Part shown: piece after piece, positions 25,872 to 48,376 of the stretch
Numbering within the stretch: the stretch's first letter is position 1
Layout of the letters: each line of letters begins with the position of its first letter
DNA from: Scenedesmus sp. PABB004
Taxonomy: Eukaryota
Direction of reading: 5' to 3'
Assembly: GCA_014905635.1 (NCBI GenBank)
Contig: CM026547.1
Coordinates: 3,720,001-3,784,000, forward strand
Length of the DNA: 64,000 nt
Made by a program: the position numbers and the translations under genes
Notes under the pieces: model-generated
Database searches by the model: none
The model's input: only the letters and a program-made list of their open reading frames with translations
What the model was told of the DNA's origin: nothing

Positions 25872-27212
25872 ATGCATTGCCGCTCGACGACGATGCGCAG
25901 CAGCATCAGCAGCAGCGTAGTGCGCGCCGCCGGGCGCGGCGCACGCGTGGTCGCCGCTGCTGCCGCGCCGCCGCCCAGCCCGCGCGCCGCCGGGCGCGGC
26001 GCACGCGTGGTCGCTGCTGCTGCCGCGCCGCCGCCCAGCCCGCGCGCCGCCGGGCGCGGGGCACGCGTGGTCGTCGCCGCCGCAGCGCCGGCGCCCGGGC
26101 CCGGGGGGTCGGTGCGCGTGCCTCGCGCGCCCGAGGCGCAAGTGAGCCAAGCTGCGGCGGCGGTCGAGGCGGCCTGGCGGGCGGGCATCAAGCGCCAGCG
26201 CGTCGAGCTGCTGCTGCCGCTCATCGGCGCGACCGACCTGGACGACTGGCCAGGCGGCATACGGCAGCAATTCAAGGCCGCCGCGCCGCTGGTGGAGGGC
26301 CTGCTGAAGCAGCTGAAGCAGATTGACGAGCTGCGCGGGCCGCTCGACGTGCAGATCTGGGACCAGGGCGACGCGGGTGCGAGCCGCCGCAAGCTGCATG
26401 CTGGCGCCGCGCCGCCCCTCCCGCGCCGCGCCGCCCGCACGCCGCGCCGCCCGCACGCAGCGCCGCCCACCCCGCGCCCCGCGCCGCCCGCGTGCGCGCC
26501 GCAGTCGGCGCTTGGTTTGGCGACAAGCTCGCTGCGGTGCTCTTCCCGACCGCCGACGTGTACGAGCAGCTCAAGGCGCTCGCGGAGCGCGACCCCGCCC
26601 CGGAGCTGCTGCTCATCGTCAACCCCCAGTGGGAGCTGCAGGTCCGCCCGCGCGGCGCCGGCGGCCGCGCGGCGCCGGCGGCGCCGGCGCGCCCGCGCCG
26701 GCGGCGCAGGCGCGGCCTGAGCGTGCGCCACGCCGCGCCGCGCCGCGCCGCACCTGGGCAGGGCAACCTGCGCAACGACTTTGGCTGGGGCAGCCGCAAG
26801 GACGCGGCGCTCGCGCTGGTGGAGTCGTTCACGCCGACCTACTGGCTGCGCCAGAGCCGCGTGGCCGGCGACGACCTGCGCGTGCTGCGCGCGCACCCTG
26901 GGCAGTGGCAGGTGTGCGCGCGCGCGCGCGCGCCGCGCCTGCGCGCGAGCTGACCGAGCTGTGCGCGCGCTGACCGAGCTGTGCGCGCGCTGACCCAGCC
27001 GCGGGCGCTGCGCGCTGCTGCAGGTGCACCTCGTCGCGCGCGACGGCAGCGACCGGCTGCTGCAGAGCTTTGCGGAGCAGCCGACGTACGCGCAGCTGAC
27101 GGAGACGCTCAAGGCCCTGCCCGAGGCGGCCATCAACAAGAGCCTCATCGACCGCCTCCGGGACGAGGCCAAGTGGCTGCAGGACTCGACGACGCAGCAG
27201 CCCAAGCAGTAG
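25872..27212 (+). CDS. DUF1995-family protein, probably plastid-targeted; 4 exons
   Basis: QAAAAVEAAWRAGIKRQRVELLLPLIGATDLDDWPGGIRQQF, LLLIVNPQW, DFGWG, LRVLRAHPGQWQV and EQPTYAQL motifs; Arg/Ala/Ser-rich N-terminus. Start is 25872 or 25893. Confidence 0.8.
25919..26090 (+). repeat. Three 60-bp tandem repeats in the predicted transit peptide
   Basis: The lines starting at 25921, 25981 and 26041 are near-identical and encode RAAGRGARVVAAAAAPPPSP. Confidence 0.9.
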
Positions 27213-32943: not shown

Positions 32944-35900
32944 ATGCCGGGCTGCGGACGGCGGCGGCGCGCCGGCGCGCCGTCGGCTGCGGCGGCGCTG
33001 CTCAGCGTCGTCGCGCTGCTCGCGCGCGCCGTCGCGGCCGGGGCGGTGGCGGCGGAGGACGTGCACGTCGTGTTCCTGACCGACTGCACCTCCTACTCCG
33101 ACTGGCAGACGCTGGGCATGGTGTTCAGCTGGAAGGAGGCGGGGCAGGTGCGCGGCGGGCGGGCCCCGCGCCGGCGGCGCGGCTGCGGCCGCCGGGGGCG
33201 CCGGCGGTCACCGGGGCAGCCGCGGCGGCGGGCCCACGCGCACGCCGCCGCCGCCGCCGCGGCCGCCGCCGCGGCCGCCGCCGCGGCCGCGGCCGCAGGC
33301 GGGCCCGCTGAGCAAGGTCATGTGCTGCACGCCGGCCGAGGCGGCCGCGTACCGCGCCGACATGCTGGGCATCGTCAAGACGCACGTCGCGCCGAGCTTT
33401 GCGGTCCACCCGCGCAGCCACGACGAGTACCCGGCGTACAACAAGCCCGAGGCGGTCGTCGACTGGCTCGCGCACGTCACGCCGGCGCAGGAGTGGCTGC
33501 TCGTGCTCGACAGCGACATGCTGCTCCGCCGCCCCTTCCTGCTGTCCGACTTCAACCTCACGCGCGGCTCCGCCGTCGGCGCCAAGTACGACTATATGAT
33601 CGGCGTGAACAACGCGCTCGCGGACCGCCACATCCCCGAGATCCCGCCCCGCAACGACAGCGCGGCGGGGCCGCCCGGGCGGCGCAGCGACCGCGTCGGC
33701 GGCTTCTTCTTCATACACCGCGACGACCTCAAAGCGCTCGCGCCGCTCTGGCTCAAGTACACGGAGGACGTGCGCGCCGACCCCGAGGTGCGTGCGCGGG
33801 CGGGCGGCCGCGCGCGGGGGTGCTCGGCGGCGCCCGCTGCCGCCGCGCCACACACCGCGCCGCACGCCGCGCCGCACCGCGCCGCACAACACGTGTTCAC
33901 GGCAGGCGTGGCGGCTCACGGGCGACGTGTACAGCAAGCACCCGGGGGACAAGCCCTGGATCAGTGAGATGTACGGCTACAGCTTTGGCGCCGCAAAGGC
34001 GGGCGTGTGGCACACGTACGACGAGGAGTCGATGCTCTACCCAGGGTACCTCCCAAACGGTGCCTTTGTTCAACACACGCGCGCCGCGCCGCGCTGTGGC
34101 GCGCCGCAGGGGGGCCCGCGCACCGCACCGCGCCGCGCCGCGCCGCCCACGCGCCGCCGCTGGGCGCGCCGCCCCCGGCGCGCGCGCCCCGCCCCGCCAG
34201 GCGTGCCGCGCGTACTGCACTACGGGCTGCTGTTCAGCGTGGAGCACAAGCGCGGGCGCTGGTCGTACGACAAGCACTGGTACCACTCCTTTGACGTCCA
34301 CAAGTGCCCGCCCTGGGACCTGGCGGCGGAGCACCCGCAGGAGGGACTCTTCCCAGCGCCGCCGGGGCCAGACGACCTGCTCGACAACGTGCGCCCCCGC
34401 GCGCCGGGCGCCGCGCGCGCTGCGCCGCGACAAGCCCGAAACAAGCGCCGCACACAGCAGCTGCCGCACGCGCGGCGCCCTCGCGCGCGCGCGCGCCGCC
34501 CGAGCCGCCGCGCCCGCCCGTCCGCCCGCGTCCCGCCCGCGTCCCGCCGCCAGCTGACGCGGGCGGAGCGGCACCGCGACCTCATCGCCATCAGCGTCGT
34601 GCACACGCTCAACGCCGCGCTGTGTGAGTTTCACCTCGCGCACTGCCCGCCGAGCGAGCAGCTCAGGGCCGCGTGCGACGCGGCGGCGGCCGTGTACGCG
34701 GCGACCAAGGCCGCGGTGCGCGCGATGGACGTGGAGATGTCGTGCGTGGACCAGCTGGTGCGCCGCGCCGTGCCGCGCCGCGCGGGCTGCAGCCGCGCCG
34801 CGCGGGGCCCGCCCGCCGCCGGGCCGGCGCGGTGGCCGGCGTGCCCTGCTGCGCGCTGGACGCGCGCCGCCGCCGCCGCGCCGCCGCGCAGCCGGACAAG
34901 TGCAAGACGTGGGCGGACGCGGGCGAGTGCACCAAGAATGCGGGCTTCATGCATGCCTCGTGCCGCAAGTCATGCAATGCCTGCAAGCCCCTCGTCTTTC
35001 CGCCGCCCCGCGTGCTGCTGGCCGACGCCGACCTGGCCGCCACGGGGCACATGGCCGCGCACGTCACCGGCGGCGCGGCGGCGGCCGGCGCCGTGGCTGG
35101 CGGCGGCGGCGCGGTGGACGCGGCGGACGCCGAGGACGGCGCGGACGACGCCGCCGAGGCGCCGAGCCCGCCGCCCCCACCGCCGCCGAGCCCCCCGCCG
35201 CCGCCGAGCCCACCGCCCCCGCCGCCGCCGAGCCCGCCGCCGCCCCCGAGCCCGCCGCCGCCGCCGCCGCCGCCCCCGAGCTGGGAGAGCCTGCTGCGCG
35301 CGAAGCACCCGCCGGCGAGCATGGCCTACAGAGACCTCATACACCGGTGAGCGCGCCGCGCAGCCGCGCAGCGCGGGCCGCAGGCCCGGGCGGCGCCGCG
35401 CTGGCAGCAGCGCGCGCCGGCGCGCCGCGCGGGCGGGCCAGCGCGCCGCCCGCGCGCTGGCTGGCGGCGGCCCGCCGACCGCCCGCGCACCGACCGTTCG
35501 CGGCGCGGCGGCGCAGGTGCTACAAGATGGCCGGCCTGACGATGCCGGAGGTCAAGGACTGCGTCAAGTGCGCCGCGCTGGGACTGCAGTTCCTTGAACC
35601 CCACCCCGGCGCGGCCGCCGGCGCGGGGACGCTCGCGGAGCAGCTGGCGCGCGACCTCGCGGCCATGGTGCGCCGGCCGGGGCGGCGCGCGCGGCAGCGT
35701 GGTGGCGCGGCGCCAGGCCGCACGGCGCAGGCGCGGCACCGACGCCCGCCCCCGCGCCCGACGGCGACGCCCGCCCCCGCGCCGCAGGACGTGTCGCCGC
35801 CCCCGCCGCCGTCGCCGCCGCCGCCCCCGCCGCCGCCGCCGCCCGCGCCCGCGGGCGAGGAGGGCGCTGCGGCGCTGGGGCGCGCGGGCGGCGCGCGGCT

Positions 35901-36069
35901 GCGGGGCGCCAAGGTGCACCTGCGCCTCGGCGACGCGCGCCCCGGCGCGCCGCGCGTGAGCACGGCCGGCGCACTGATCCTGTGGCTCATCCTGGTGGCG
36001 CTGTTCTTGCTTCTGCTGCCGCTGATCTTCCGGCGGCGGCGCGCCAAGTCGGGGCAGCGCAGCGACTGA
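32944..36069 (+). CDS. Peptidyl-serine O-alpha-galactosyltransferase (SGT1/SERGT1, GT96)-like; also has an ShKT domain, SP-rich stalk and C-terminal TM
   Basis: Signal peptide; HVVFLTDCTSYSDWQTLGM; HPRSHDEYPAYNKPEAVVDWL; LVLDSDMLLR; WISEMYGYSFGAA; LHYGL; ShKT-type CVDQLPDKCKTWADAGECTKNAGFMHASCRKSCNAC; TM ALILWLILVALFLLLLPLIF followed by RRRR. Confidence 0.85.
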
Positions 36070-36573
36070 CGCGCGGCCGAGGGAGGGGCGCGCGCGGGCG
36101 CGGGCGGGGTAGGCAGGGCGGGGTAGGCAGGCCGGGCGGGCGGCGGAGCCGTGTGAACTGCGAGCGAGCCCTGCGGCGCGGTCAGGCGGCGGCTGGCGGC
36201 GAGGACGGCCGGCCGTTTCCGTGGCAGCTCCGCCCGCTGCGATGCCCGCGCCCTGCCCCCCGTCGCCCGCCGTGCGTGCTCGTGCGCGAGCTGCACGCTC
36301 GACGCGGCGTATGAATCAGGAGGCGGGCCACGGGCCCGCACGACAGGGACGGGAGATGACCAGGCGGCCGCGTGCCAAAATCGCGCCCTGCCCAGGCGCG
36401 GCAGCCTCGCTCGCTCACCCGATCTCCTCGTCTGCATCGCCGGTGCCATGACGCGCACTGAGTAGCCTTCGATAGCGCCACCGCCGAAGAGCTCGTGCCG
36501 ACACGCGCTCCGACACCTCCGCTCGCAGCCGACGCCACCGTCCCGGGCCCGTCGAGCTCCCGTCCGACACGGC

Positions 36574-38070
36574 ATGACTGTCCAGATGCAGCGCCGCTGG
36601 CGGCGCGCCGCGCAGGTCACTGCGCTGGCGCTGCTCTCCGCGCTGGCGGCAACCGTGGGCGCCGCCGGCGGCGAGCCCGAGGCCGACCGCGTGGACGTGT
36701 GGGTGCAGCTCATCATCAAGGCGCCCGACGGAGGCCTTTGCACGCGCGGCGCAGCGACGCAGGCCAGCGCGGCAGCGGCGCTGCGCGGCGCGCTCGCGGC
36801 CGACGCAGCGGCCACGCTCGCGGGTGCGGTCACCGCGGGCTGCACCTGGCGCTCCGCGCGCAAGGTCGTGCTGCTCACGGTCAAGCTGACCTACTACGGC
36901 CCACTGGCGGTGCGGGCCCGCTTCATGCGTGCCGTGCGCGCCAGCGCCACCGCGGTGTGCGGCCTGCCCGGCGGCGTGTGCGACGTCGTCAGTTCTGGCG
37001 CTGCAGGCGCCAGCGTGGTGGGCGCGAACGCGTCTTCCAAGCCCCCCGGTGGGTGGGCGCGCGCACGGCCGGCTGCACTGCCTGGCTGCCCGCCGCGGCG
37101 CGCCTGGCGCGCCGCGCCGCGCCGCTGACCCTGGCCCACGGTGCGCGCCCGTAGCCGCGTCGCGCAACTGCACGGGCCCACCACCGACGCCGCCCTATGC
37201 CAAACCGTTTTTGTTCTGCACCGGCATCCAGCTGCCCGGCACCTCGTGCTTCTCAGAGTGCCTTGCCGGGCACCCCAATTATCCAGGCATGTCATACTTC
37301 ATCACCGCAGCCTGTGCCACCAACGGGGAGTGGGAGCTGCAGACTGGCCCCGAGCACCCCAGCTGCAGCGCGGCAGGTGCGAGGCGCACCGGCGCGGCGC
37401 GGCGCAGCGGGGGCGGGCCGCGCGGCGAGCGCGCCGCCGCCACGCGCTCGCGCGCGCCCCGCAGCCATGGCAAACTGCACCGACGCGCCTGAGCTGGCGT
37501 ACGCCGACTTGTCTACGTTCTACGTCCTGGACGGCGAGATCGGCGTCCCCTGCAACGGCAGCCGCGTGCCCGGGACGACCTGTAGCGCGTGGTGCGCGGA
37601 GGGTCACCTCGGCAACGGCTACATCGTCGAGTGCTACAACGGCAGCTGGAGGGTGATGGACCATGGCAACGGCACCGCGCTTCCGTCTGGCTGCAGCGCA
37701 GATGGTGGGCGCGCTTCAGCAACGTCCCGCGCCGCGCCGTGCCGCGTGTGAGCGCAAGCGTGGCCTGTTCCGCGCCGCCGCGGCTCCTGCCCAGCCGCGC
37801 GCCCGCGCGCCGCGCGCCTGCCCGCCCGCAGTGCACCCCAACTGCGTCGGCCGGCCGCCGGCGCCGACCGTGCCTGGCGCGTACTGGCCGAAAACCTGCA
37901 CCAACCTCCCCGTCAACGCGGTCTGCTTTGGCTCCTGCAGCGACGGCTACACCGGCTTTGGCTTGCAGGCGCGCTGCGTCGCGGGCGGGCAGTGGGTCAT
38001 GACCACAGACTTCTCAGACATGCCCGACTACGGCTGCACACGTGCGCCGCGTGGGCAGCCGGGTAAGTAG
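36574..38070 (+). CDS. Secreted Cys-rich protein, array copy 1: N-domain plus 3 sushi/CCP-like modules; truncated or short form
   Basis: Signal QVTALALLSALAATVGA; three phase-1 exons with a C..PGT.C...C..G...C..G.W...C pattern. Similarity to copy 2 ends ~38040. Confidence 0.7.
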
Positions 38071-38207
38071 TCTGAATGACTGGTTCACGGCTGCAGGGCG
38101 GGCGGGGTGCAGGCACGTTCGCGGACGCGCGCCCTCGGCAACAAAGCCGGCCGTGCCCAAGTTCACACCGTCGTGATCGGGGACGTCTACCACGCCTACA
38201 AGGCGCT

Positions 38208-38780
38208 GCAGTTCCTGCTGCTGCCGCTGATCTTCCGGCGGCGGCGCGCCAAGTCGGGGCAGCGCAGCGACTGACGCGCGGCCGAGGGAGGGGCGCGCGC
38301 GGGCGCGGGCGGGGTAGGCAGGGCGGGGTAGGCAGGCCGGGCGGGCGGCGGAGCCGTGTGAACTGCGAGCGAGCCCTGCGGCGCGGTCAGGCGGCGGCTG
38401 GCGGCGAGGACGGCCGGCCGTTTCCGTGGCAGCTCCGCCCGCTGCGATGCCCGCGCCCTGCCCCCCGTCGCCCGCCGTGCGTGCTCGTGCGCGAGCTGCA
38501 CGCTCGACGCGGCGTATGAATCAGGAGGCGGGCCACGGGCCCGCACGACAGGGACGGGAGATGACCAGGCGGCCGCGTGCCAAAATCGCGCCCTGCCCAG
38601 GCGCGGCAGCCTCGCTCGCTCACCCGATCTCCTCGTCTGCATCGCCGGTGCCATGACGCGCACTGAGTGGCCTTCGATAGCGCCACCGCCGAAGAGCTCG
38701 TGCCGACACGCGCTCCGACACCTCCGCTCGCAGCCGACGCCACCGTCCCGGGCCCGTCGAGCTCCCGTCCGACACGGCAT
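38208..38780 (+). repeat. Near-identical duplicate of the SGT1 3' end plus the intergenic region (copy of ~36005-36575)
   Basis: ctgccgctgatcttccggcggcggcgcgccaagtcggggcagcgcagcgactga and the following ~500 bp recur at a 2205-bp offset. Confidence 0.92.
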
Positions 38781-41700
38781 GACTGTCCAGATGCAGCGCC
38801 GCTGGCGGCGCGCCGCGCAGGTCACTGCGCTGGCGCTGCTCTCCGCGCTGGCGGCAACCGTGGGCGCCGCCGCCGGCGGCGAGCCCGTGGCTGAGCCCGT
38901 GGCGCTGTGGGTGCAGCTCACCATCAAGGCGCCCGACGGCGGCCTTTGCACGCGCGGCGCAGCGACGCAGGCCAGCGCGGCGGCGGCACTGCGCGACGCG
39001 CTCGCGGCCGACGCGGCGGCCACGCGCGCGGATGCGGTCACCGCGGGCTGCACCTGGCGCTCCGCGCGCAAGGTCGTGCTGCTCACGGTCAAGCTGACCT
39101 ACTACGGCCCACTGGCGGTGCGGGCCCGCTTCATGCGTGCCGTGCGCGCCAGCGCCACCGCGGTGTGCGGCCTGCCCGGCGGCGTGTGCGACGTCGTCAG
39201 TTCTGGCGCTGCAGGCGCCAGCGTGGTGGGCGCGACCGCGTCTCCCAAGCCCTTCACGCCCGTCGGTGGGCGCGCGCGCGGCCGGCTGCGCTGCCTGGCA
39301 CGCCGCCGCGCCGGGCGCGCCGCTGCTGCGCTCCGCTTACCCTGGCCCACCGTGCGCGCCCGCAGCCGCGCCGCGCAACTGCACGGGCCCGCCGCCGGTG
39401 ACGCCACCTTATGCTGGCGCGTTCATTGGCTGCAATGGCACCCGGCTGCCGGGCACCTTGTGCTACGCACCCTGCCTTCCCGGGCACCCCGCGCCGCCTG
39501 GCATGCCAGACTCCGCCTCCGCGCTCTGCGCCACCAGCGGGGAGTGGGAGCTGCAGACTGGCCCCGACCACCCCAGCTGCAGCGCGGCAGGTGCGCGGGG
39601 CACCGGCGCGGCGCGGCGCAGCGGGGGCGGGCCGCGCGGCGAGCGCGCCGCCGCCACGCGCTCGCGCGCGCCCCGCAGCCATGGCAAACTGCACCGACGC
39701 GCCTGAGCTGGCGCACGCCGGCTTGTTCCACACCGTGGCCGGCATGGGCGTCCCCTGCAACGGCACCCGCGCGCCCGGGACGATCTGCGCCGCGGAGTGC
39801 GCGGAGGGGCACCTCGGCAACGGCTACAACGCCAAGTGCTAGGCGGCAGTTGGGCTGTGATCGACTTGAGCAACCGCACCTGGGGGGCGCTTCCGTTTGG
39901 CTGCAGCGCAGAGGGTGGGCGCCCTTCAGCAGCGCCGCGCCGCGCCGCGCCGCGCCGCGCCGCCGCGGCGCCCGCCCAGCCGCGCGCCCGCGCGCCGCGC
40001 GCCTGCCCGCCCGCAGTGCACCCCAACTGCGTCGGCCGGCCGCCAGCGCCGACCGTGCCCGGCGCGTACTGGCCGAGCACCGCCTGCGCCAACACCCCCG
40101 TCAACGCGGTCTGCTACAGCTCCTGCAGCGACGGCTACACCGGCTTTGGTGTGCAGGCGCGCTGCGTCGCGGGCGGGCAGTGGGTCATGATCACAGACCT
40201 CTCAAACGCCCCCAACTACGGCTGCACGGGTGAGCCGCGCCCCCCTTTCCCCTCCCTCCTCTCCTCCTCCCCCGCGCGGCGTGCGCCGCCGCTGGCGCCG
40301 GCGCCCAGCGACGCCCGCGCGCGCCGCGGCCGCAGCCTCCGGCCCGCCCGGCTCCTGCTCGGACCTGCCGACGGCTGGAGCGCCGGGCGCCTACGCCAAC
40401 GCCTGGCCGGTCAGCTGTGCCGGCGCGGCGATCGGCGCCACCTGCAGCACCACGTGCGCGCCAGGCTTTGTTGGGGGCTACACCGCGACCTGCGGCGCCA
40501 GCGGGAAGTGGGTCGGCGTGTCGGGCAGCTGCAGCAGCGGTGCGCGCTCCGGCCTCACGCGGCGGCTGCGGCGGCGCGTGGCTGCGGTGCGCGGCGACAG
40601 GCATGAGAGGCGGCTCACCGCCGCCGCCCCGCCCGGCGCCGCAGAGCCGCTGAGGCTCAACTGCACCAGCGTCCCCACCGACAGCGCCGCGATGCGCGCC
40701 GCGGGCGTCTCCTTTGCTTCGGCGGGCTGCGCCGGCAGCCCCGCCGGCTTTGTGTGCACCGTGCCATGCACAGGCCCCGGCCAGTCTGGCAGCTGGACCT
40801 CAGCCTGCCTCCCGACCGGGAAGTGGGGCGCCGCGCAGGGCAGCTGCACCCAGGGTGAGAGCGGCGTGTCTGTGCGCCGCGGCGCGGCGCCGCCCGACCG
40901 CGCGCGGCTCACCCCGCTCGGCCGCCTGCCCTGCGCGCCTCAGCGGGGCCGATCTATCGAGTGATGGTGTACGACGCCCGCTCGATGGACCAGGGCGGCG
41001 GGTACAAGCTCTGGCGGAGCACGGCCGGCGTCACCGGCACGTTTGCCGAGACCGCGCCCCCGGCGGTGGGCGGCGGCGATGTCCGCTGGGCGGGCAGCAG
41101 CAACCTGCAGACGCAGGTCGTCGCGCGGGCCACCCAACCACACTACGGCATCGTCGACAATATAGGGTCGTCGCTGCCCCTGCTCTCCGCCGACGGCGGC
41201 TCCGTGTGGCTCAACACGACCGGTCCCACCTTGCCTGTGGATGCCACCTTTGTAGCGCTCGCGTCGTCGCGGGGTGAGCGGCGCGCGTGCAGGCCGGCTC
41301 ACGGCGGCACGCGCTGTGCGGGGCGGGTGTGGGGCGAGGGCACGCCATGTGCGCCGCTCACGCCGCGACGCCCGGGCGCAGACGGCTCCCGCGTCGTGGG
41401 CGTGACAGCACCGGTGTTGCGGAACGGCGTCGTGGTGCAAGCCGGGGCCGTGACGGCGCTGAGCCCCAGCGCCGGCGCGTGGGTGGACATCACCCCCTGG
41501 CTGGCCCCCGTCAGGTGGCGCTCCGTCGCCTGCGACGCCGCGTGCGACACGATCTACCTCGCTCCCTCCAGCTCCACCCCGGACGGCACCGCCCTGGTCG
41601 ACCAGCTCTACAGGTCCTCCGACGGCGGACGCACGTTTGCCAAGTTTGGCGACGCCAAGCTCTGGGCATACGTCGCCTCCAACCACGACGGTGGGCTGCC

Positions 41701-42327
41701 AGTTGGGCGCGCTGTGCACGCGCAGCTGCCGCTCGCTTTGGCGCGCGCGCCGCTCACGCGCGCGCCGCTCACGCGCGCGCCGCGGCGGCGCCGCTCGCCG
41801 CGCCTGCAGGCACGCGGCTGCTGGCGTCCACCAGCGAGCCTGCCACGTACGTCTCCAGCGACAGCGGCGCCACGTGGACCAAGGTCAGTAGCCTTGCCAC
41901 GTGGAGCAGCTTTGGCGACTGCGCCATCGCGGCGCTGGCCATCGACGGCACGGGCTCGCACATGCTGGCCAGCACCGTGTGGTGCACGGGCGGGTCTGGT
42001 CGCTGCCCGGTGTGGTCGTCGCGCGACGGCGGCGCCAGCTGGGAGGTGCGCTACAACCTGAGCTGCTCGGCCCCGGGCATCCACCACATGGCCATCAGCG
42101 GGAGCGGGGAGGTGCAGCTGTTTGCCATGGGCAGCACGTTTTACTACTCGGAGGACTACGGCGCGACGTGGCAGTCGCGCTGGGTTGGGCCCGACATCAA
42201 CAACGCTCTCGCGCTCCGCATCAGCGACGTGTGCGACGCCTGCGCCAACGGCAGCTGCGACGCCGGCGGGTGCTGGTGCAACGCCGGCTACGCTTGGAGC
42301 GGCAGCTCGTGCCGCCAGGCGGCCTAG
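38779..42327 (+). CDS. Secreted protein, array copy 2: N-domain, 5 sushi-like modules, Asp-box (BNR) propeller-like region, EGF-like end; one frameshift at ~39840
   Basis: Paralog of copy 1 at a 2205-bp offset. Asp-boxes YRSSDGGRTF, YVSSDSGATW, WSSRDGGASW and YYSEDYGATW; C-terminus CDACANGSCDAGGCWCNAGYAWSGSSC. Confidence 0.75.
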
Positions 42328-42494
42328 CCCCGGCACGGCGGCCGGGCTGCGATCAGCGGAGCGCTCCGTCACGGGTGGAGCGCCGCGGCAGAGCCGTGTC
42401 GACCCCTGCGCGGTGACCAGGGGCTGGCCGGGCTTCAAGGGGCGGCACTACCAGAGCAGCTGCTTGGTGCTGGCGAGCCGCCACCCGCGCCTGC

Positions 42495-42795
42495 GCGGGC
42501 GAGGCGGGCGCGGCGGCGCTGGGGCGCGCGGGCGGCGCGCGGCTGCGCTGCGCCAAGGTGCACCTGCGCCTCGGCGACGCGCGCCCCGGCGCGCCGCGCG
42601 TGAGCACGGCCGGCGCACTGATCCTATGGCTCATCCTGGTGGCCCTGTTCTTCCGGCGGCGGCTGCCGCTGATCTTCCGGCGGCGGCGGCGCGCCAAGTC
42701 CGGGCAGAGCGGCGACTCGCGAGCGGCCGAGGGAGGGGCGCGCGGGAGAGGCGCGCGGGTGAGCGGGCGGGGTAGGCAGGCCGGGCGGGCGGCGG
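42495..42795 (+). pseudogene. Duplicated, degenerate SGT1 last-exon fragment
   Basis: Encodes KVHLRLGDARPGAPRVSTAGALILWLILVALF...RAKSGQSGD, matching ~35850-36150; the stop is mutated. Confidence 0.85.
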
Positions 42796-43243
42796 AGCGA
42801 ACGGCGCCTGACGCGTGCGGCAGCCCTGGCAGCAAGGCTGCTGCCGCCCCGGGCCCGGTTCGGCGGCTGCGGCGCGCGTGTTCTGGCTGGCCGCCGCGCC
42901 AAACGCGAACGCTCTTTGCTGCTGCGATCGCCTGCATGTTTGCGTGCGCACGCATGTGGACAGACCCTGGCAGCGTATGAACGAGCGGGCTGGCCCGCCT
43001 GGCGCAAAACAGGCCGCACGATGACCCGCGCGCAAAATCGGGGCGCGCGCGCTGCTGCGCGCCTAACCCCTCGCTGGCGCCCGCCCGTTGCTCGCCCGCA
43101 ACACCAGTGACACGGAGGGCGCCGACAGCCCCGCCGTCCACGCTCGCACAGCGGACAGAAGCCCCAGCTTCGGTCTGAGCCACCGCCCCGACCTGGCGAG
43201 CGCTTCCACGACCGATCGAGCTCGCCCCCCGACACCCGACAGC

Positions 43244-45406
43244 ATGCCCGTCCACGTGAAGCGCCGCTCGCGGCGCGCCGCGCAGGTCACCGCGCTGGCG
43301 CTGCTCTCCGCGCTGGCGGCAACCGTGGGCGCCGCCGGCGGCAAGCCCGAGGCCGACCCCGTGGCGCTGTGGGTGCAGCTCATCATCAAGGCGCCCGACG
43401 GCGGCCTTTGCTCGGGCGCAGAGACGCAGTACAACGCAGCGGCGGCACTGGGCCAGGCGCTCACGTCCGACCCGATGCTGCAGCCGCGCGTGGAGTTTTA
43501 CGCCACGGACTGCCGCTTGGATTCCGCGCGCAAGGCCGTGCTGCTGACGGTCAAGCTGACCTACCCCGGCCCACTGGCGGTGCGGGCCCGCTTCATGCGT
43601 GCCGTGCGCGCCAGCGCCACCGCGGTGTGCGGCCTGCCCGGCGGCGTGTGCGACGTCATCAGTTCTGGCGTCCAGGGCGCCAGCGTGGTGGGTGCGACCG
43701 CGTCTTCCAAACCCCTCGGTGGGCCGGCGCGTGCACGGCCGGCTGCGCTGCCTGGCACGCCGCCGCGCCGGGCGCACGGCGGCGCGCCGCTGACTCTGGC
43801 CCACCGTGCGCGCCCGCCGACAGGACCGATCCCCTGCACCAGCGCGCCTACCGACAGCGCCGCGATGCGCGCCGCGGGCGTCTCCTTTGCTTCGGCGGGC
43901 TGCGCCGACAGCTGCCCCGGCTTCAAGTGCATCGTGCCATGCACAGGCCCCGGCCAGTCTGGCAGCTGGACCTCGGCCTGCCTCCCGACCGGGAAGTGGG
44001 GCGCTGCGCAGGGCGGCTGCACCCAGAGTGAGAGCGGCGGCGTGCCCGCGCGCCGCGCCGCGGCACCGCCCGACCGCGCGCGGCTCACCTCGCTCGGCCG
44101 CCTGCCCTGCGCGCCTCAGCGGGGCCGGTCAGCCCTCCAGGGCTGTCCTACACGGTCCTGGTGTATGACGCCCGCGCAATGTACCAGGGCGGCGGGTACA
44201 AGCTCTGGCGGAGCACGGCCGGCGTCACCGGCACATTTGCCGAGGTCAAAACGCCGCCGCCGGTGGGCGACGCCAGCATTCGATGGGCGGCCAGCAGCAA
44301 CCTGCAGACGCAGGTCGTCGCGGACACCAACAGCGGCGCGCTGCCCCTGCTCTCCACCGACGGCGGCTCCACGTGGCGCAGGACGACTGGGGTCGACCTG
44401 TCTACCTCCTTCGTTGACACGCTTGCGTCCTCGCGGGGTGAGCCCGCCTTTGCCAGCCCGCTGGCGCGGCGGCCGGCGCGCGGCGCCAGTGGGGCCTGGG
44501 CAGCGCAAGACGCACCACCATGTGCGCCGCGCGCCGCCGCCTGCCTGCCTCGCTCCCAACAACGCTCGGCGACGCGCACGCAGACGGCTCCCGCGCTGTG
44601 GCCGAGGTGATTAATGAGAAAACGATCGGAGACGTGTGGGTGCTGACCACAAGCACCGGCGTGTGGGTGCGGAGGAACCCCCGGCTGGGCGCCTACAAGT
44701 GGTGCTCCGTCGCCTGCGACGCGTCGTGCAACGTGATTTACACCGCCCCCTGCAGCCTCCGGCAACGCTTCGCGCTGGTCAGGTCATCTGACGGCGGAAA
44801 CACCTGGGCCAGCGTCGGCCCAACCATGTTCTGGGAGAGAGTCGTCTCCAACAACGACGGTGACCCTCGGCTGAGCCGAGCGCGCGCCCACCAGCACGCG
44901 CCCAGTCGGGCGTGGTGCAGCTGTCGCTCGCTTTGGCGCGCGCCGCTGACGCGCGTGCCGCGGCGGCGCCGCCCGGCGCGCCTGCAGGCACGCGGCTGCT
45001 GGCGGCCGCCCGCGAGGCCACGTACGTCTCCAGCGACAGCGGCGCCACGTGGGCCAATGTCAGCCGCCTTGCCACGTGGAGCAGCTATGGCGACTGCACC
45101 ATCGCGGCGCTGGCCATCGACGGCACGGGCTCGCACATGCTGGCCAGCACCGTGTGGTGCACGGGCGGGTCTGGTCGCTGCCCGGTGTGGTCGTCGCGCG
45201 ACGGCGGCGCCAGCTGGGAGGTGCGCTACAACCTGAGCTGCTCGGCCCCGGGCATCCACCACATGGCCATCAGCGGGAGCGGGGAGGTGCAGCTGTTTGC
45301 CATGGGCAGCACGTTTTACTACTCGGAGGACTACGGCGCGACGTGGCAGTCGCGCTGGGTTGGGCCCGACATCAACAACGCCGTCTCGCTCCTCATCAGC
45401 GGCTGA
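43244..45406 (+). CDS. Secreted protein, array copy 3: N-domain, 1 sushi-like module, Asp-box region; EGF-like end lost
   Basis: MPVHVKRRSRRAAQVTALALLSAL start; same intron positions as copy 2; last exon nearly identical to copy 2 until DINNA, then stops at LISG*. Confidence 0.75.
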
Positions 45407-45614
45407 CGGCAGCTGCGACGTCGGGGGGCGCTCGCGCTCGTGCCGCCAGCGCACACGGCGGCACGGGCTGCGATCAGCGGAGCGCTCCGTCACGGGTGGA
45501 GCGCCGCGGCAGAGCCGTGTCGACCGCTGCGCGGTGACCAGCGGTCAGGCTTTGAGGGGCGGCAATACCAGAGCAGCTGCTTGGTGCTGGCGAGCCGCCG
45601 CCCACGCCCTCGCT

Positions 45615-45870
45615 CGAGGCGGGCGCGGCGGCGCTGGGGCGCACGGGCGCGGCTGCGGGGCGCCAAGGTGCACCTGCCGCTGCTGCTGCCGCTGCTGCTG
45701 CCGCTGCTGCCGCTGATCTTCCGGCGGCGGCGGCGCGCCAAGTCGGGGCAGAGCGGCGACTCGCGAGCGGCCGAGGGAGGGGCGCGCGCGGGCGCGCGGG
45801 TGCGCGGGCGGGGGCTAAGCAGGCCGGGCGGGCGGCGGAGCCGTGTGACCTGCGAGCGAGCGGCGCCTGA
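45615..45870 (+). pseudogene. Internally deleted SGT1 last-exon fragment
   Basis: Encodes RLRGAKVHL joined directly to PLLLP...PLIFRRRRRAKSGQSGD, followed by SGT1 3' UTR-like sequence. Confidence 0.8.
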
Positions 45871-46198
45871 CGCACGCAGGAGCCCCCGTCGCAGCAGCCC
45901 GGCCGTGGCGGCCGCCGCCCAGACCCGGGCGTCGGCGCGCAACGGCCTGCCCGCCGCCGCCGCCGCCGCCGGCCGCGCCGGCGGGGCGGCCTCTGCACCT
46001 AGTCGTGTTCAACGGGTGCGTTGGCCGCGCCGGAGCCCCTAGCTGACGCGCGCGGGCTCGGGTGCAGGGCCCAGCCGCCGCATCCATCAGCGCGCTCAAC
46101 TCCCCGCCCCCGCTCGCCGCCGCCCTCTTTCCGCTGCGACGCAGGTTAAAGTCGCCTGCCGGCTGTTTACCCGGCTTGGTCCTGCGTCGCGCGCCAAG

Positions 46199-48376
46199 AT
46201 GCCGTCCGCCAGCAAGCTCGAGAAGAAGGAGGCGGTGCGCGGCCGCGCCGGGGCCCGCCGCTCGCGCGGGCGGCCGATCTCGCGCCCCTGACGCCCCTCG
46301 GCCGCGTGCGCAGTACCACGCCCGCCTCTGCGAGTACCTGAACACCTACGACAAGGCGTTCGTGGTGGGGGCCGACAATGTGGGCTCCAAGCAGATGTCC
46401 GACATCCGCGCGGTGAGGGAGACCGCGGGGCGGCGCCGCGCCGCCGGCGGCGCGCCGGGCGCGGGCATGCGGCCGCCGCCGCGGCGGCGGCTGGCGCTGC
46501 TGCTGCTGCGCCGCCGGCGGCGGCCGGGGGCCGGCGGCAAGGCGGCCAGGCGGCCGGGGCCGGCGGCAGGCGGCCGGGGCGAGGCCCCGGCGGCCGGCAG
46601 CGGCGCCCCGGCGGCGGCGAGGCGGCGGCTCACGCGCGCGCGCCGCCCGCCAGGCGCTGCGCCCCGAGACCATCATCCTGATGGGCAAGAACACCATGAT
46701 GAAGCGCTCCATCCGCCTCTACTGCGAGGAGACGGGCAACGACCAGTGGGCCCCGATCCTGGACGAGCTCGTCGGCAACGTCGGCCTCATCTTCACCAAG
46801 GGCGACCTCGCGCAGGTGCGCTGCGCGTCGTGGCAGCAGCGCGACGCGCAGCGCGACGCAGCAGCTGGCGCGGGGCGCGGCGGGCGAGCGCGGCAGCAGC
46901 TGGGGCTGGACGCGCCGCGAGCGGCGGCGCGGGCAGCGGCGCGCGGCGAGGGGCGGCTGGCGGAAGACGCGGCAGCGCCAGCGGCGCCAGCGCCAGCGGC
47001 GGCGGGAGCAGCGCCAGCGCCAGCGCCAGCGGCGGCAGCGCCAGCGCCAGCGGCGGCAGCGCCAGCGCCAGCGCCAGCGCTAGCGCCAGCGGCCCCTGTA
47101 ATGGCAGAACCGCGCGGCGGCGCGGTGCCGCCGCGGTTTTGACAGGGGCCAGAGCGGCGGTGCCGATCTCCGGGGACGGGAAGCGAAACGCATATGCACC
47201 AGATCTTCGAATATCGGCACCAACATGCTGCACCCGCCGCGGCGCCCCCGCCACGCCACCCCACGCTCGCGGCGGCGCCGCGGCGCGGCGCGCGCCCTCG
47301 CCCCGGCCCACACCACGCGCCCGCCTCACGCGCCCGCCGGCCCTGCCGCGCAGGTCAAGGCCGAGATCGCCAAGTACAAGGTCGGCGCGCCCGCGCGCGT
47401 GGGCCTGGTCGCGCCCAACGACGTCACCATCCCCGCCGGCGGCACGGGCATGGACCCGTCCCAGACCTCGTTCTTCCAGGCGCGCACGCGGCGCAGCGCG
47501 CACGCGCGCACACACGCGCCGCCGCCGGGCTGGCGCGCCGTCGCGCCCGCGCCCCGGCCCGCCGCGCCCGTGCCCGCGCCCGCCGCCCGTGCGCCCGCGT
47601 CGCCCACCCCGCCCCCTCCCGCTCCCCCGCGCGCCCGCCGTCGCCCGCCAGGCGCTCGCGATCGCGACCAAGATTAACAAGGGCACGATCGACATCGTGA
47701 GCGACGTGCACCTCATCAAGGCGGGCGACAAGGTCGGCGCGAGCGAGGCGGCGCTGCTCGGCAAGCTCGGCGTCAAGCCGTTCAAGTACGGCCTCGAGAT
47801 CGTGCGCGTCTACGACAGCGGCTCGCTCTTTGAGCCCGCCGTGCTCGACATCACCGACGCCGACATGGAGGCGACCGTCGGCGCGGCGCTGTCCAACATC
47901 GCGGCGCTCTCGCTCGCGATCGACGTGCCCACGCTCGCGAGCATCCCGCACAGCGTCATCAACGGCTACAAGAATGTCCTCGCGATCGCGGTCGAGACCG
48001 ACTACTCCTTCCCGCTCGCCGACAAGGCGCGCGCCGGCGGCACGCGCGCGCGGCGGCGGCGGCAGCAGCGGGGTGGCGGCAGCAGCGGCGGCGGGGGCTG
48101 CAGCGGCGGCGGCGCAGCGGCGGCGGGGGCTGCAGCGGCGGCGGCGCAGCGGCGGCGGGGGCTGCAGCGGCGGCGGCGCAGCGGCGCCCGCGCGCCGTGC
48201 CGCCCATGCGCGCCGCGCCGCCCCCGCGCCCGCAGGTCAAGGCGTACCTCGCCGACCCGAGCGCCTTTGCCGTGGCCGCCGCGCCCGCGGCGGGCTCCGC
48301 GGCGCCCGCCGCCGCGGCGGCGCCGGAGCCCGAGGAGGAGGAGGAGGAGGACATGGGCTTCTCCCTCTTTGACTGA
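46199..48376 (+). CDS. RPLP0: 60S acidic ribosomal protein P0 (uL10); 6 exons
   Basis: [60 protein letters not shown], and C-terminal [14 protein letters not shown]. Confidence 0.98.
47091..47228 (+). ncRNA. Intronic box H/ACA snoRNA candidate (pseudouridylation guide for 18S rRNA)
   Basis: Two hairpins (47091-47150 and 47159-47221), hinge AGAGCG, ACA at 47223-47225; both pockets are complementary to conserved 18S sequences. Confidence 0.85.

Follow-up and report, generated by a model that had tools for sequence, protein, structure and literature searches.

In the 64-kb stretch of DNA analysed here (64,000 nucleotides, the window), three related tandem units encoding putative modular membrane proteins were found by self-comparison (self-BLAST), and the first two, copy 1 (36574-38041) and copy 2 (38779-40229), are compared in this report. 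We consider it likely that these units are old tandem paralogs that have been overwritten in patches by recent short-tract gene conversion. Diversifying selection is neither needed nor shown for the contrast between the variable exons and the near-identical introns, on which a first-pass annotation of the sequence had based its claim that exons diverge faster than introns, through diversifying selection on exposed loops or cassette-style conversion from other paralogs.

The two copies were aligned globally (35997-38060 against 38202-40250) and mismatches were counted for each segment, the exon borders being set by homology and by GT/AG sites. In the following lines copy 1 coordinates stand before those of copy 2.

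36574-38041, + strand: copy 1, ATG at 36574, exons 1-4 only
From ATG at 38779, + strand: copy 2, exons 1-6, three BNR/Asp-box propeller exons, EGF-like end, transmembrane (TM)/basic tail
36013-36659 = 38218-38864, + strand: near-identical tract of 451 and 195 nt with a single mismatch at 36464, running from the tail-exon 3' end through the 3' untranslated region (UTR), intergenic DNA and 5'UTR to nt 86 of exon 1
3'UTR, intergenic DNA and 5'UTR: 1/504 sites differ, 0 gap columns
36574-37048 and 38779-39265, + strand: exon 1, predicted signal peptide and N-terminal domain, family unassigned, with variable patches at 36661-36720 and 36721-36850 and an identical tract at 36825-37027; 20/475 sites differ, 3 gap columns
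37049-37154 and 39266-39365, + strand: intron 1, GT..AG; 18/104 sites differ, 2 gap columns
37155-37376 and 39366-39590, + strand: exon 2, Sushi/CCP-like module, phase 1-1, 222 and 225 nt, core 37186-37325 diverged and AT-enriched in copy 1; 46/222 sites differ, 3 gap columns
37377-37464 and 39591-39678, + strand: intron 2, 86/88 identical; 2/88 sites differ, 0 gap columns
37465-37704 and 39679-39914, + strand: exon 3, Sushi/CCP-like module, 240 and 236 nt, diverged with indels from 37500 on; 34/230 sites differ, 16 gap columns
37705-37831 (copy 1), + strand: intron 3, its 3' part within the identical tract 37789-37859; 5/102 sites differ, 25 gap columns
37832-38041 and 40017-40229, + strand: exon 4, Sushi/CCP-like module, 210 and 213 nt, the putative copy 1 donor GT 38042 being homologous to the copy 2 donor; 22/218 sites differ, 3 gap columns

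The earlier claim that exons diverge faster than introns holds for exons 2 and 3 set against intron 2 and the intergenic DNA (exon 2 versus intron 2, p=8e-6; exon 3 versus introns 2 and 3 together, p=1e-4). It fails for intron 1, exon 2 being no more diverged than this intron (p=0.55), and it is weak for intron 3 versus exon 4, where the difference is not significant (p=0.14). The near-identity of the upstream intergenic DNA and of intron 2 was reproduced, as were, by translation, the module peptides that had been quoted. The module centres differ while their Cys and Trp codons are kept, as described before: in exons 2-4 the Cys and Trp codons (18 and 3) are intact without exception (21/21), with 57 of the 217 codons amino-acid-changed (hypergeometric p=0.001). 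The exon ends are kept as well, yet they match at synonymous sites too, each forming one tract with the adjoining intron.

Copies 1 and 2 share identical runs of 451, 203, 195, 114 and 71 nt. Permutation of the alignment within 36660-38049 (1407 columns, 201 non-identical) gave a longest run of 37.5 nt on average and of 89 nt at most, with 0/5000 permutations reaching 114, so that the runs of 203 and 114 nt observed in this interval lie above every permutation. The tracts are independent of coding status: the one at 36825-37027 is wholly inside exon 1, that at 37386-37499 spans an exon-intron border (79 nt of intron 2 and 35 nt of exon 3), and that at 37789-37859 is made of intron 3 and exon 4 sequence.

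Neutral sites fall into strata, with divergence of ~0.2% in the intergenic DNA, ~2-5% in introns 2 and 3, and ~17-24% in intron 1 and at the silent sites of exon 2 (NG86 synonymous differences, 13.1/55). The heterogeneity is significant for intron 1 versus intron 2 (p=6e-4), intron 1 versus intergenic DNA (p=7e-14) and synonymous sites of exon 2 versus intergenic DNA (p=3e-13). Synonymous divergence (dS) is 0.16-0.40 in exons 2-4, compared with 0.002 in the intergenic DNA, 0.023 in intron 2 and 0.049 in intron 3. Because the variable exons are strongly diverged at silent sites too, their contrast with the introns cannot be a product of amino-acid selection, and this high silent divergence shows that the module cores are old and not recently accelerated.

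The third unit provided a further comparison for exon 1 and intron 1, exons 2-4 being present in two copies only.

43244-45760, + strand: copy 3, ATG at 43244, exon 1 joined directly to an exon 6-like module (43832-44026), then propeller exons and tail

The nearest neighbour changes along exon 1 and intron 1 among the three copies. Copies 1 and 2 are identical at 36574-36660 and 36851-37027, where copy 3 differs at 7/87 and 13/177 sites. At 36661-36720 copies 1 and 2 differ at 8/60 sites, against 5/60 in the comparison with copy 3, and at 37028-37154 they differ at 23/125 sites, either of them differing from copy 3 at 17-19/122. Sites at which copy 1 equals copy 3 are interleaved with sites at which copy 2 equals copy 3, and intron 1 is roughly equidistant among the three. 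Copies 2 and 3 are equally patchy with the roles reversed, the exon being the homogenised part: a propeller exon is 100% identical over ~300 nt (41913-42210 versus 45088-45385), the preceding exon 8 (41384-41689 versus 44586-44858) has a proportion of nonsynonymous differences (pN) of 0.36, and the DNA upstream of exon 6 is ~50-60% identical. The first-pass annotation had missed this third copy, together with a frameshift in copy 2 exon 3 and the end of copy 1 after exon 4, which are described below.

The mechanism that we propose would start from an old tandem array of three paralogous genes, in which repeated gene conversion over short tracts would have moved sequence between copies 1 and 2 (concerted evolution); the tracts were presumably made by conversion and not by unequal crossing-over. 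A recently converted tract would be identical whether it holds intergenic DNA, exon ends, half of exon 1, intron 2 or a part of intron 3. In unconverted tracts, which are intron 1 and the exon 2, exon 3 and exon 4 cores, the old divergence would persist at every kind of site (synonymous, intronic and replacement). The appearance of exons evolving faster than introns would then arise because of where the tract borders fall. We infer that these borders came to lie at the indel-rich, diverged module cores, where heterology would probably stop heteroduplex extension, and that the events followed this order. The long identical tract begins at 36013 inside the last exon of the upstream gene and, in the next unit, at 38218 within the 3' part of a tail exon. 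Left of this border (~36013/38218) a residual similarity to the tail exon was detected (local score 19 versus 11 +/- 1.9, maximum 17, for shuffled sequence), and such weak homology would fit an old unit that was partly overwritten better than a fresh duplication junction. Intron identity is thus largely attributed to recent conversion, an outcome that the first-pass annotation had itself named as contrary to its reading.

We regard as unlikely the alternative that diversifying or balancing selection keeps the ligand-facing Sushi-like cores different while conversion and drift homogenise the rest, a regime resembling the one known from major histocompatibility complex (MHC) or venom genes and implying a recognition function (mating, self/non-self, virus or symbiont). 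The diverged stretches are module cores, with the exon ends and two introns homogenised; the Cys/Trp scaffold is kept in spite of the 57 changed codons; and exon 3, besides exceeding introns 2 and 3 in divergence, has an NG86 omega (dN/dS) of 2.15 and an indel-rich segment between the first and second Cys. The hypervariable loop of CCP modules is said to sit between these two cysteines.

Against this stand the codon-based estimates. Maximum likelihood (ML; GY94, F3x4) gave dS of 0.40, 0.22 and 0.16 for exons 2, 3 and 4 and omega of 0.59, 0.60, 0.82 and 0.44 for exons 1-4, with 0.45 for exons 2-4 pooled (two sequences, low power); omega above 1 in exons 2-4 found no support from this codon-frequency-aware method. 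NG86 omega was 0.99, 0.82, 2.15 and 0.78 for exons 1-4, with 29.6 replacement and 4.4 silent differences in exon 3. The value of 2.15 is unreliable because a GC content at third codon positions (GC3) of ~0.9 (range 0.79-0.93) leaves fewer effective silent sites than NG86 assumes, and NG86 values of about 1 or more are found elsewhere too and are not module-specific (1.79 in exon 1 and 1.4 in propeller exon 8 for copies 2 versus 3). YN00 gave omega of 0.75 for exon 3 and was not relied on, its dS of 1.09 for exon 4 being erratic. The dS of the cores is 10 to 100 times the divergence of the intergenic DNA and intron 2, beyond the reach of amino-acid selection; intron 1 is as diverged as exon 2; copy 1 is truncated, and in copy 2 exon 3 a frameshift is present as assembled. 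The comparison of dN/dS per exon with intron divergence, which had been suggested as a check, gave no support to diversifying selection on exposed loops, ML omega being below 1 in each exon and the silent sites being diverged beyond introns 2 and 3. In exon 2 the variable stretch, which begins near residue 15 and takes in both strands and loops, stops at the fifth Cys, at the start of the identical tract.

Base composition adds a further feature of the cores. The copy 1 exon 2 core (37186-37325) is the most AT-rich stretch of the locus, with GC of 0.60, where copy 2 has 0.71 and the identical tracts range over 0.74-0.87, and this enrichment resembles mutation pressure under relaxed constraint, which also argues against selection for diversity. 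In exon 2, copy 1 has A/T opposite G/C of copy 2 at 27 sites versus 8 in the reverse direction (p=0.002), moving residues toward F/Y/I/K/N. Such a skew is consistent with AT-biased mutation where GC-biased conversion or strong constraint does not reach. Targeted hypermutation was considered and rejected: copy 1 has T at 43, A at 37, G at 37 and C at 30 of the 147 mismatches, with 76 transitions versus 71 transversions, so that the mismatches are neither adenine-specific, as with diversity-generating retroelements, nor transition-only, as with repeat-induced point mutation (RIP) or deaminase editing. Plain pseudogene decay of both copies as the sole cause was ruled out by the 21/21 intact Cys/Trp codons (p=0.001).

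Several observations weigh against patchy conversion as the whole explanation. Exons 2-4 have two sequences, so that conversion there is read from heterogeneity, and the strongly diverged stretches are module cores, which selection against homogenisation would also produce. Synonymous divergence in exon 3 is not significantly above that of intron 2 (p=0.19), and this exon, whose NG86 omega from the two sequences is 2.15, may have a modest excess of replacements. The retention of every Cys/Trp codon means that the divergence is not free drift. Over exons 2-4 and intron 3, copy 1 has A/T against G/C of copy 2 at 58 sites and the reverse at 25 (p=4e-4), a skew that is a lineage-specific process beyond what conversion alone explains. 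Donors may also exist outside the 64-kb window and the public proteins.

As assembled, copies 1 and 2 each depart from an intact gene. Copy 2 exon 3 is one base short relative to copy 1 near 39840, giving an in-frame TAG (39840-39842), and the Trp and Cys downstream of this stop are kept in the shifted frame. The frameshift may be a very recent lesion or a consensus error, the site being covered only by a contig of a ~93% identical relative; since the module exons are phase 1-1, skipping exon 3 would keep the frame. In copy 1, exon 4 is followed by remnants of a tail exon.

38042-38274, + strand: copy 1 3' end, with a degenerate tail-exon remnant at 38052-38201 and, at 38202-38274, the tail-exon 3' part that opens the next unit (TGA 38272-38274)

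Reading of this sequence found no GT-AG join that would keep the TM/tail frame, and copy 1, without exons 5-9, probably encodes a truncated product of three modules that lacks the TM segment.

Very unlikely, in our assessment, is a very recent 2.2-kb tandem duplication (tail exon through exon 4) that gave two identical units and was followed by cassette-style overwriting of intron 1 and the cores of exons 2-4 from more distant paralogs elsewhere in the genome. Such an event would account for the single difference among the ~650 nt that make up the tail, the intergenic DNA and the 5' end of exon 1, for the constant unit length (2205-2214 nt) and for the likeness of copy 1 to a partial duplicate (exons 1-4) followed by a tail-exon piece. 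Against it stands the negative search for a donor: other Sushi-like modules in the window were sought, and the module profile run over the 64 kb retrieved only the 9 known modules; with tblastn neither the exon 2 core nor that of exon 3 was matched a second time, weak matches elsewhere not holding up; and no module has a public protein above 47% identity. The three copies are about equally far apart in intron 1, residual homology lies left of the supposed junction, and at least three divergence strata (~0.2%, 5-10% and 20%) demand several events anyway. The earlier suggestion of cassette-style conversion from other paralogs was therefore right as to the class of process, and the outside donor that it invoked was not found in the window or among public proteins; the evidence favours old paralogs partly homogenised with each other over an outside cassette.

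An assembly artefact, with identical tracts or diverged cores produced by collapse, chimeric consensus or mis-polishing of a repeat, is hardly credible. Short-read contigs from three metagenome runs agree, to within 0-2 differences, with stretches specific to one copy and with tract borders. In favour of an artefact are the single assembly, the share of sampled words (at most 10% in any run) and the copy 2 exon 3 frameshift, which could be a consensus error. Four freshwater metagenome runs carry 6-10% of the words sampled from the window, and no RNA run appeared among the carriers. Contigs of three of them (X1, X3 and X4) match 37524-37674 (1 difference), 37568-37839 (2), 37717-38016, 38027-38176 (exact), 38756-38906 and 40006-40180 (1). 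They cover, in copy 1, the core of exon 3 and the stretch from intron 3 to exon 4 and, in copy 2, exon 4 and the patch of exon 1. In the fourth run (X2) a relative at ~93% identity was found. None of the near-exact contigs in the four runs lies over the exon 2 cores or the frameshift site; the contigs are short and perhaps come from the source environment, and the support is partial. Because they match both copies and several tract borders, the two distinct copies and those borders are not artefacts of this assembly.

A short form of the gene is represented by copy 3. At 43717-43832 it passes from exon 1/intron 1 straight to the exon 6-like module, without exons 2-5, and in run X2 a contig of the ~93% identical relative joins 39363 to 40661, skipping 1297 nt, akin to the copy 3 form. 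The exon 1 to exon 6-like arrangement thus seems to be present in a related strain.

The remaining exons of copy 2 and the last exon of the gene upstream of the array are as follows.

40336-40539 and 40645-40854, + strand: copy 2 exons 5 and 6, two further Sushi/CCP-like modules absent from copy 1, exon 6 matching copy 3 43832-44026
40944-41273, 41382-41690 and 41810 to ~42315, + strand: copy 2 exons 7-9, BNR/Asp-box, Sortilin-Vps10-like beta-propeller, then EGF-like Cys-rich end
42477-42700, + strand: copy 2 tail exon, TM and basic tail, TCG where other tails have TGA
35835-36069, + strand: last exon of the upstream HPAT/ShK gene, TM and RRRRAKSGQ tail, TGA 36067-36069, homologous to the tail exons of copies 2 and 3

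Judged from its translated exons, each gene would encode a type I membrane protein in which a signal peptide and an N-terminal domain precede two to five Sushi/CCP-like modules of six cysteines each. A BNR/Vps10-like propeller would follow, then an EGF-like piece, and the protein would end in a TM segment and a basic tail. The module exons are all phase 1-1 (222, 240 and 210 nt in copy 1; 225, 213, 204 and 210 nt in copy 2, apart from the frameshifted exon 3). Alignment of eight modules revealed C4, P8, C22, C31, C35, G38, C48, G52, W54 and C68 to be invariant in 8/8, a framework with six Cys per module instead of the four of Sushi. Matches to Pfam Sushi (PF00084) were obtained for 3 of the 8 module exons tested, at 16.6-20.2 bits and all below the gathering cut-off of 20.7 (copy 1 exon 4, E=0.01; copy 2 exon 4, E=0.002; copy 2 exons 5-6, E=8e-4), the other 5 exons giving no match to this family. 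The AlphaFold2 (AF2) model of copy 1 exon 4 has a mean predicted local distance difference test (pLDDT) of 84.4, and each of the 50 ranks that Foldseek listed from the PDB is a protein with CCP domains, among them CD55, C4BP, CR2, CD46 and factor H, with a best E of only 5e-3, none at or below 1e-3, and TMq of 0.39-0.57.

A profile of the modules retrieved 274 proteins at E <=1e-3 among 1.84 billion representatives; of 11 such relatives scanned, 6 have Pfam Sushi above the cut-off and one pairs the modules with a weak Vps10 match. A protein search with copy 1 exon 2 gave 21 candidates, none at E <=0.01. By framework and relatives, and tentatively by modelled fold, the modules are best described as divergent six-cysteine Sushi/CCP-like modules whose scores stay under the Pfam membership threshold. 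They share with the Sushi/CCP/SCR family the ~65-75 amino-acid module in one phase 1-1 exon, the invariant spacing of Cys, Pro, Gly and Trp, the CCP-only list of the best 50 PDB matches to the predicted fold (best E of 5e-3) and profile relatives that carry Pfam Sushi. They differ from it in having six invariant Cys instead of four, in their best Pfam score (20.2 versus 20.7), in the algal host and in the BNR/Vps10-like propeller as partner. Selectin repeats are six-cysteine variants of Sushi/CCP. A literature search on Sushi domains in chlorophytes yielded nothing pertinent.

The propeller exon matches Pfam Sortilin-Vps10 (PF15902) at 1.2e-9 and 38 bits, above the cut-off of 33, and SxDxGxTW (Asp-box) motifs are visible in its translation. 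All 30 relatives found carry PF15902, PF14870 and PF02012, and identity to any public protein is 24-34%; an exact 24-mer from the conserved propeller exon had 0 matches in metagenome contigs. The propeller thus resembles the Sortilin/Vps10 and Ycf48-like BNR propellers in its SxDxGxTW repeats, above-cut-off Pfam match and distant relatives, and it is distinguished from them by its fusion partners, the Sushi-like modules and an N-terminal domain that matches no known family. This exon 1 domain (36574-37048) consists of the predicted signal peptide and ~120 amino acids with four Cys, and its variable centre is flanked by sequence conserved among the three copies. No significant Pfam family and no usable Atlas match were found for it, and the 295 metagenome-contig stretches matched by exon 1 protein patterns included no relative.

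In the upstream gene (33300-36069) Pfam matched an HPAT-family glycosyltransferase region (E=7e-7) and ShK (E=6e-7), and the gene also has stretches rich in SPPPP. Its tail exon is 90% identical to the Sushi-propeller tail (35835-36149 versus 42477-42798; self-BLAST and alignment of four tails), and such identity between unrelated genes means that the tail exon was shared or converted across gene families. The stop TGA of this tail (36067-36069 in the upstream gene, 38272-38274 in copy 1) is TCG in copies 2 and 3 (~42690 and ~45740), so that the frames of these copies run well past the basic tail.

GC content is ~75-82% throughout the window and roughly 78% for the genome of the locus, and the GT-AG introns identify the window as eukaryotic nuclear DNA. 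The neighbouring genes, namely the HPAT-family glycosyltransferase with its ShK domain and SPPPP runs and an exon resembling ribosomal P0/L10 (a weak match), point to a green-alga-like host. Two GC-rich tandem repeats were detected at 25922-26096 (period 60, 2.9 copies) and 48046-48186 (period 32, 4.3 copies). No Rfam family reached its gathering score in 35500-46500, intron 2 included, and no tRNA was found in 33000-47000.

Concerted evolution by short-tract conversion is known in tandem duplicates such as the globin, growth-hormone and RH gene pairs. As in those pairs, blocks of identity alternate with old divergence at this locus, the tracts are blind to exons and introns, and the nearest neighbour shifts along the sequence; what differs is the GC-rich, green-alga-like genome, the Sushi-like/propeller receptors, the tract borders at module cores and the truncation of one partner. 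In MHC class I/II genes recombination homogenises introns while the peptide-binding exons stay diverse. The likeness here is that intron 2 and the flanks are near-identical while the adjoining exon cores differ at 15-21% of sites, whereas the synonymous sites are as diverged as the replacement sites, one intron is not homogenised and ML omega is below 1. Snake-venom toxin genes combine accelerated evolution, exchange of exon segments and conserved introns. With them the locus has in common small disulfide-rich modules with a preserved Cys scaffold and the replacement of segments inside exons between similar introns; it differs in that no omega above 1 is left once codon bias is modelled, no donor segments were found and intron 1 is diverged. 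Papers on these two cases are PMC12674619 and PMC3434948 (MHC class I/II) and PMC2474615 and PMC6062510 (snake-venom toxins). The likeness to either is superficial, as ML omega does not exceed 1 and silent divergence is higher than that of the homogenised introns. A literature search on introns more conserved than exons gave nothing pertinent.

Taken together, the locus is a real feature with an ordinary mechanism. As it stands, it provides a clean, textbook-style case of patchy concerted evolution and a caution that paralog introns more alike than the exons are not by themselves a sign of positive selection, especially where GC3 of ~0.9 inflates simple dN/dS estimates. The family may be of modest interest for its pairing of a BNR/Vps10-like propeller with six-cysteine Sushi/CCP-like modules and for its green-alga-like lineage, which is extremely GC-rich and has been little sampled; the modules and the propeller exon tested have no public match at 50% identity. 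It appears quite unlikely that a unicellular green alga keeps the binding cores of its Sushi/CCP-propeller proteins different in each copy while conversion homogenises the promoters, introns and scaffold-coding exon ends. Were selection to keep the cores diverse, the array would be a candidate locus for the recognition of mates, kin, viruses or symbionts in algae and would represent an MHC- or venom-like regime outside animals.

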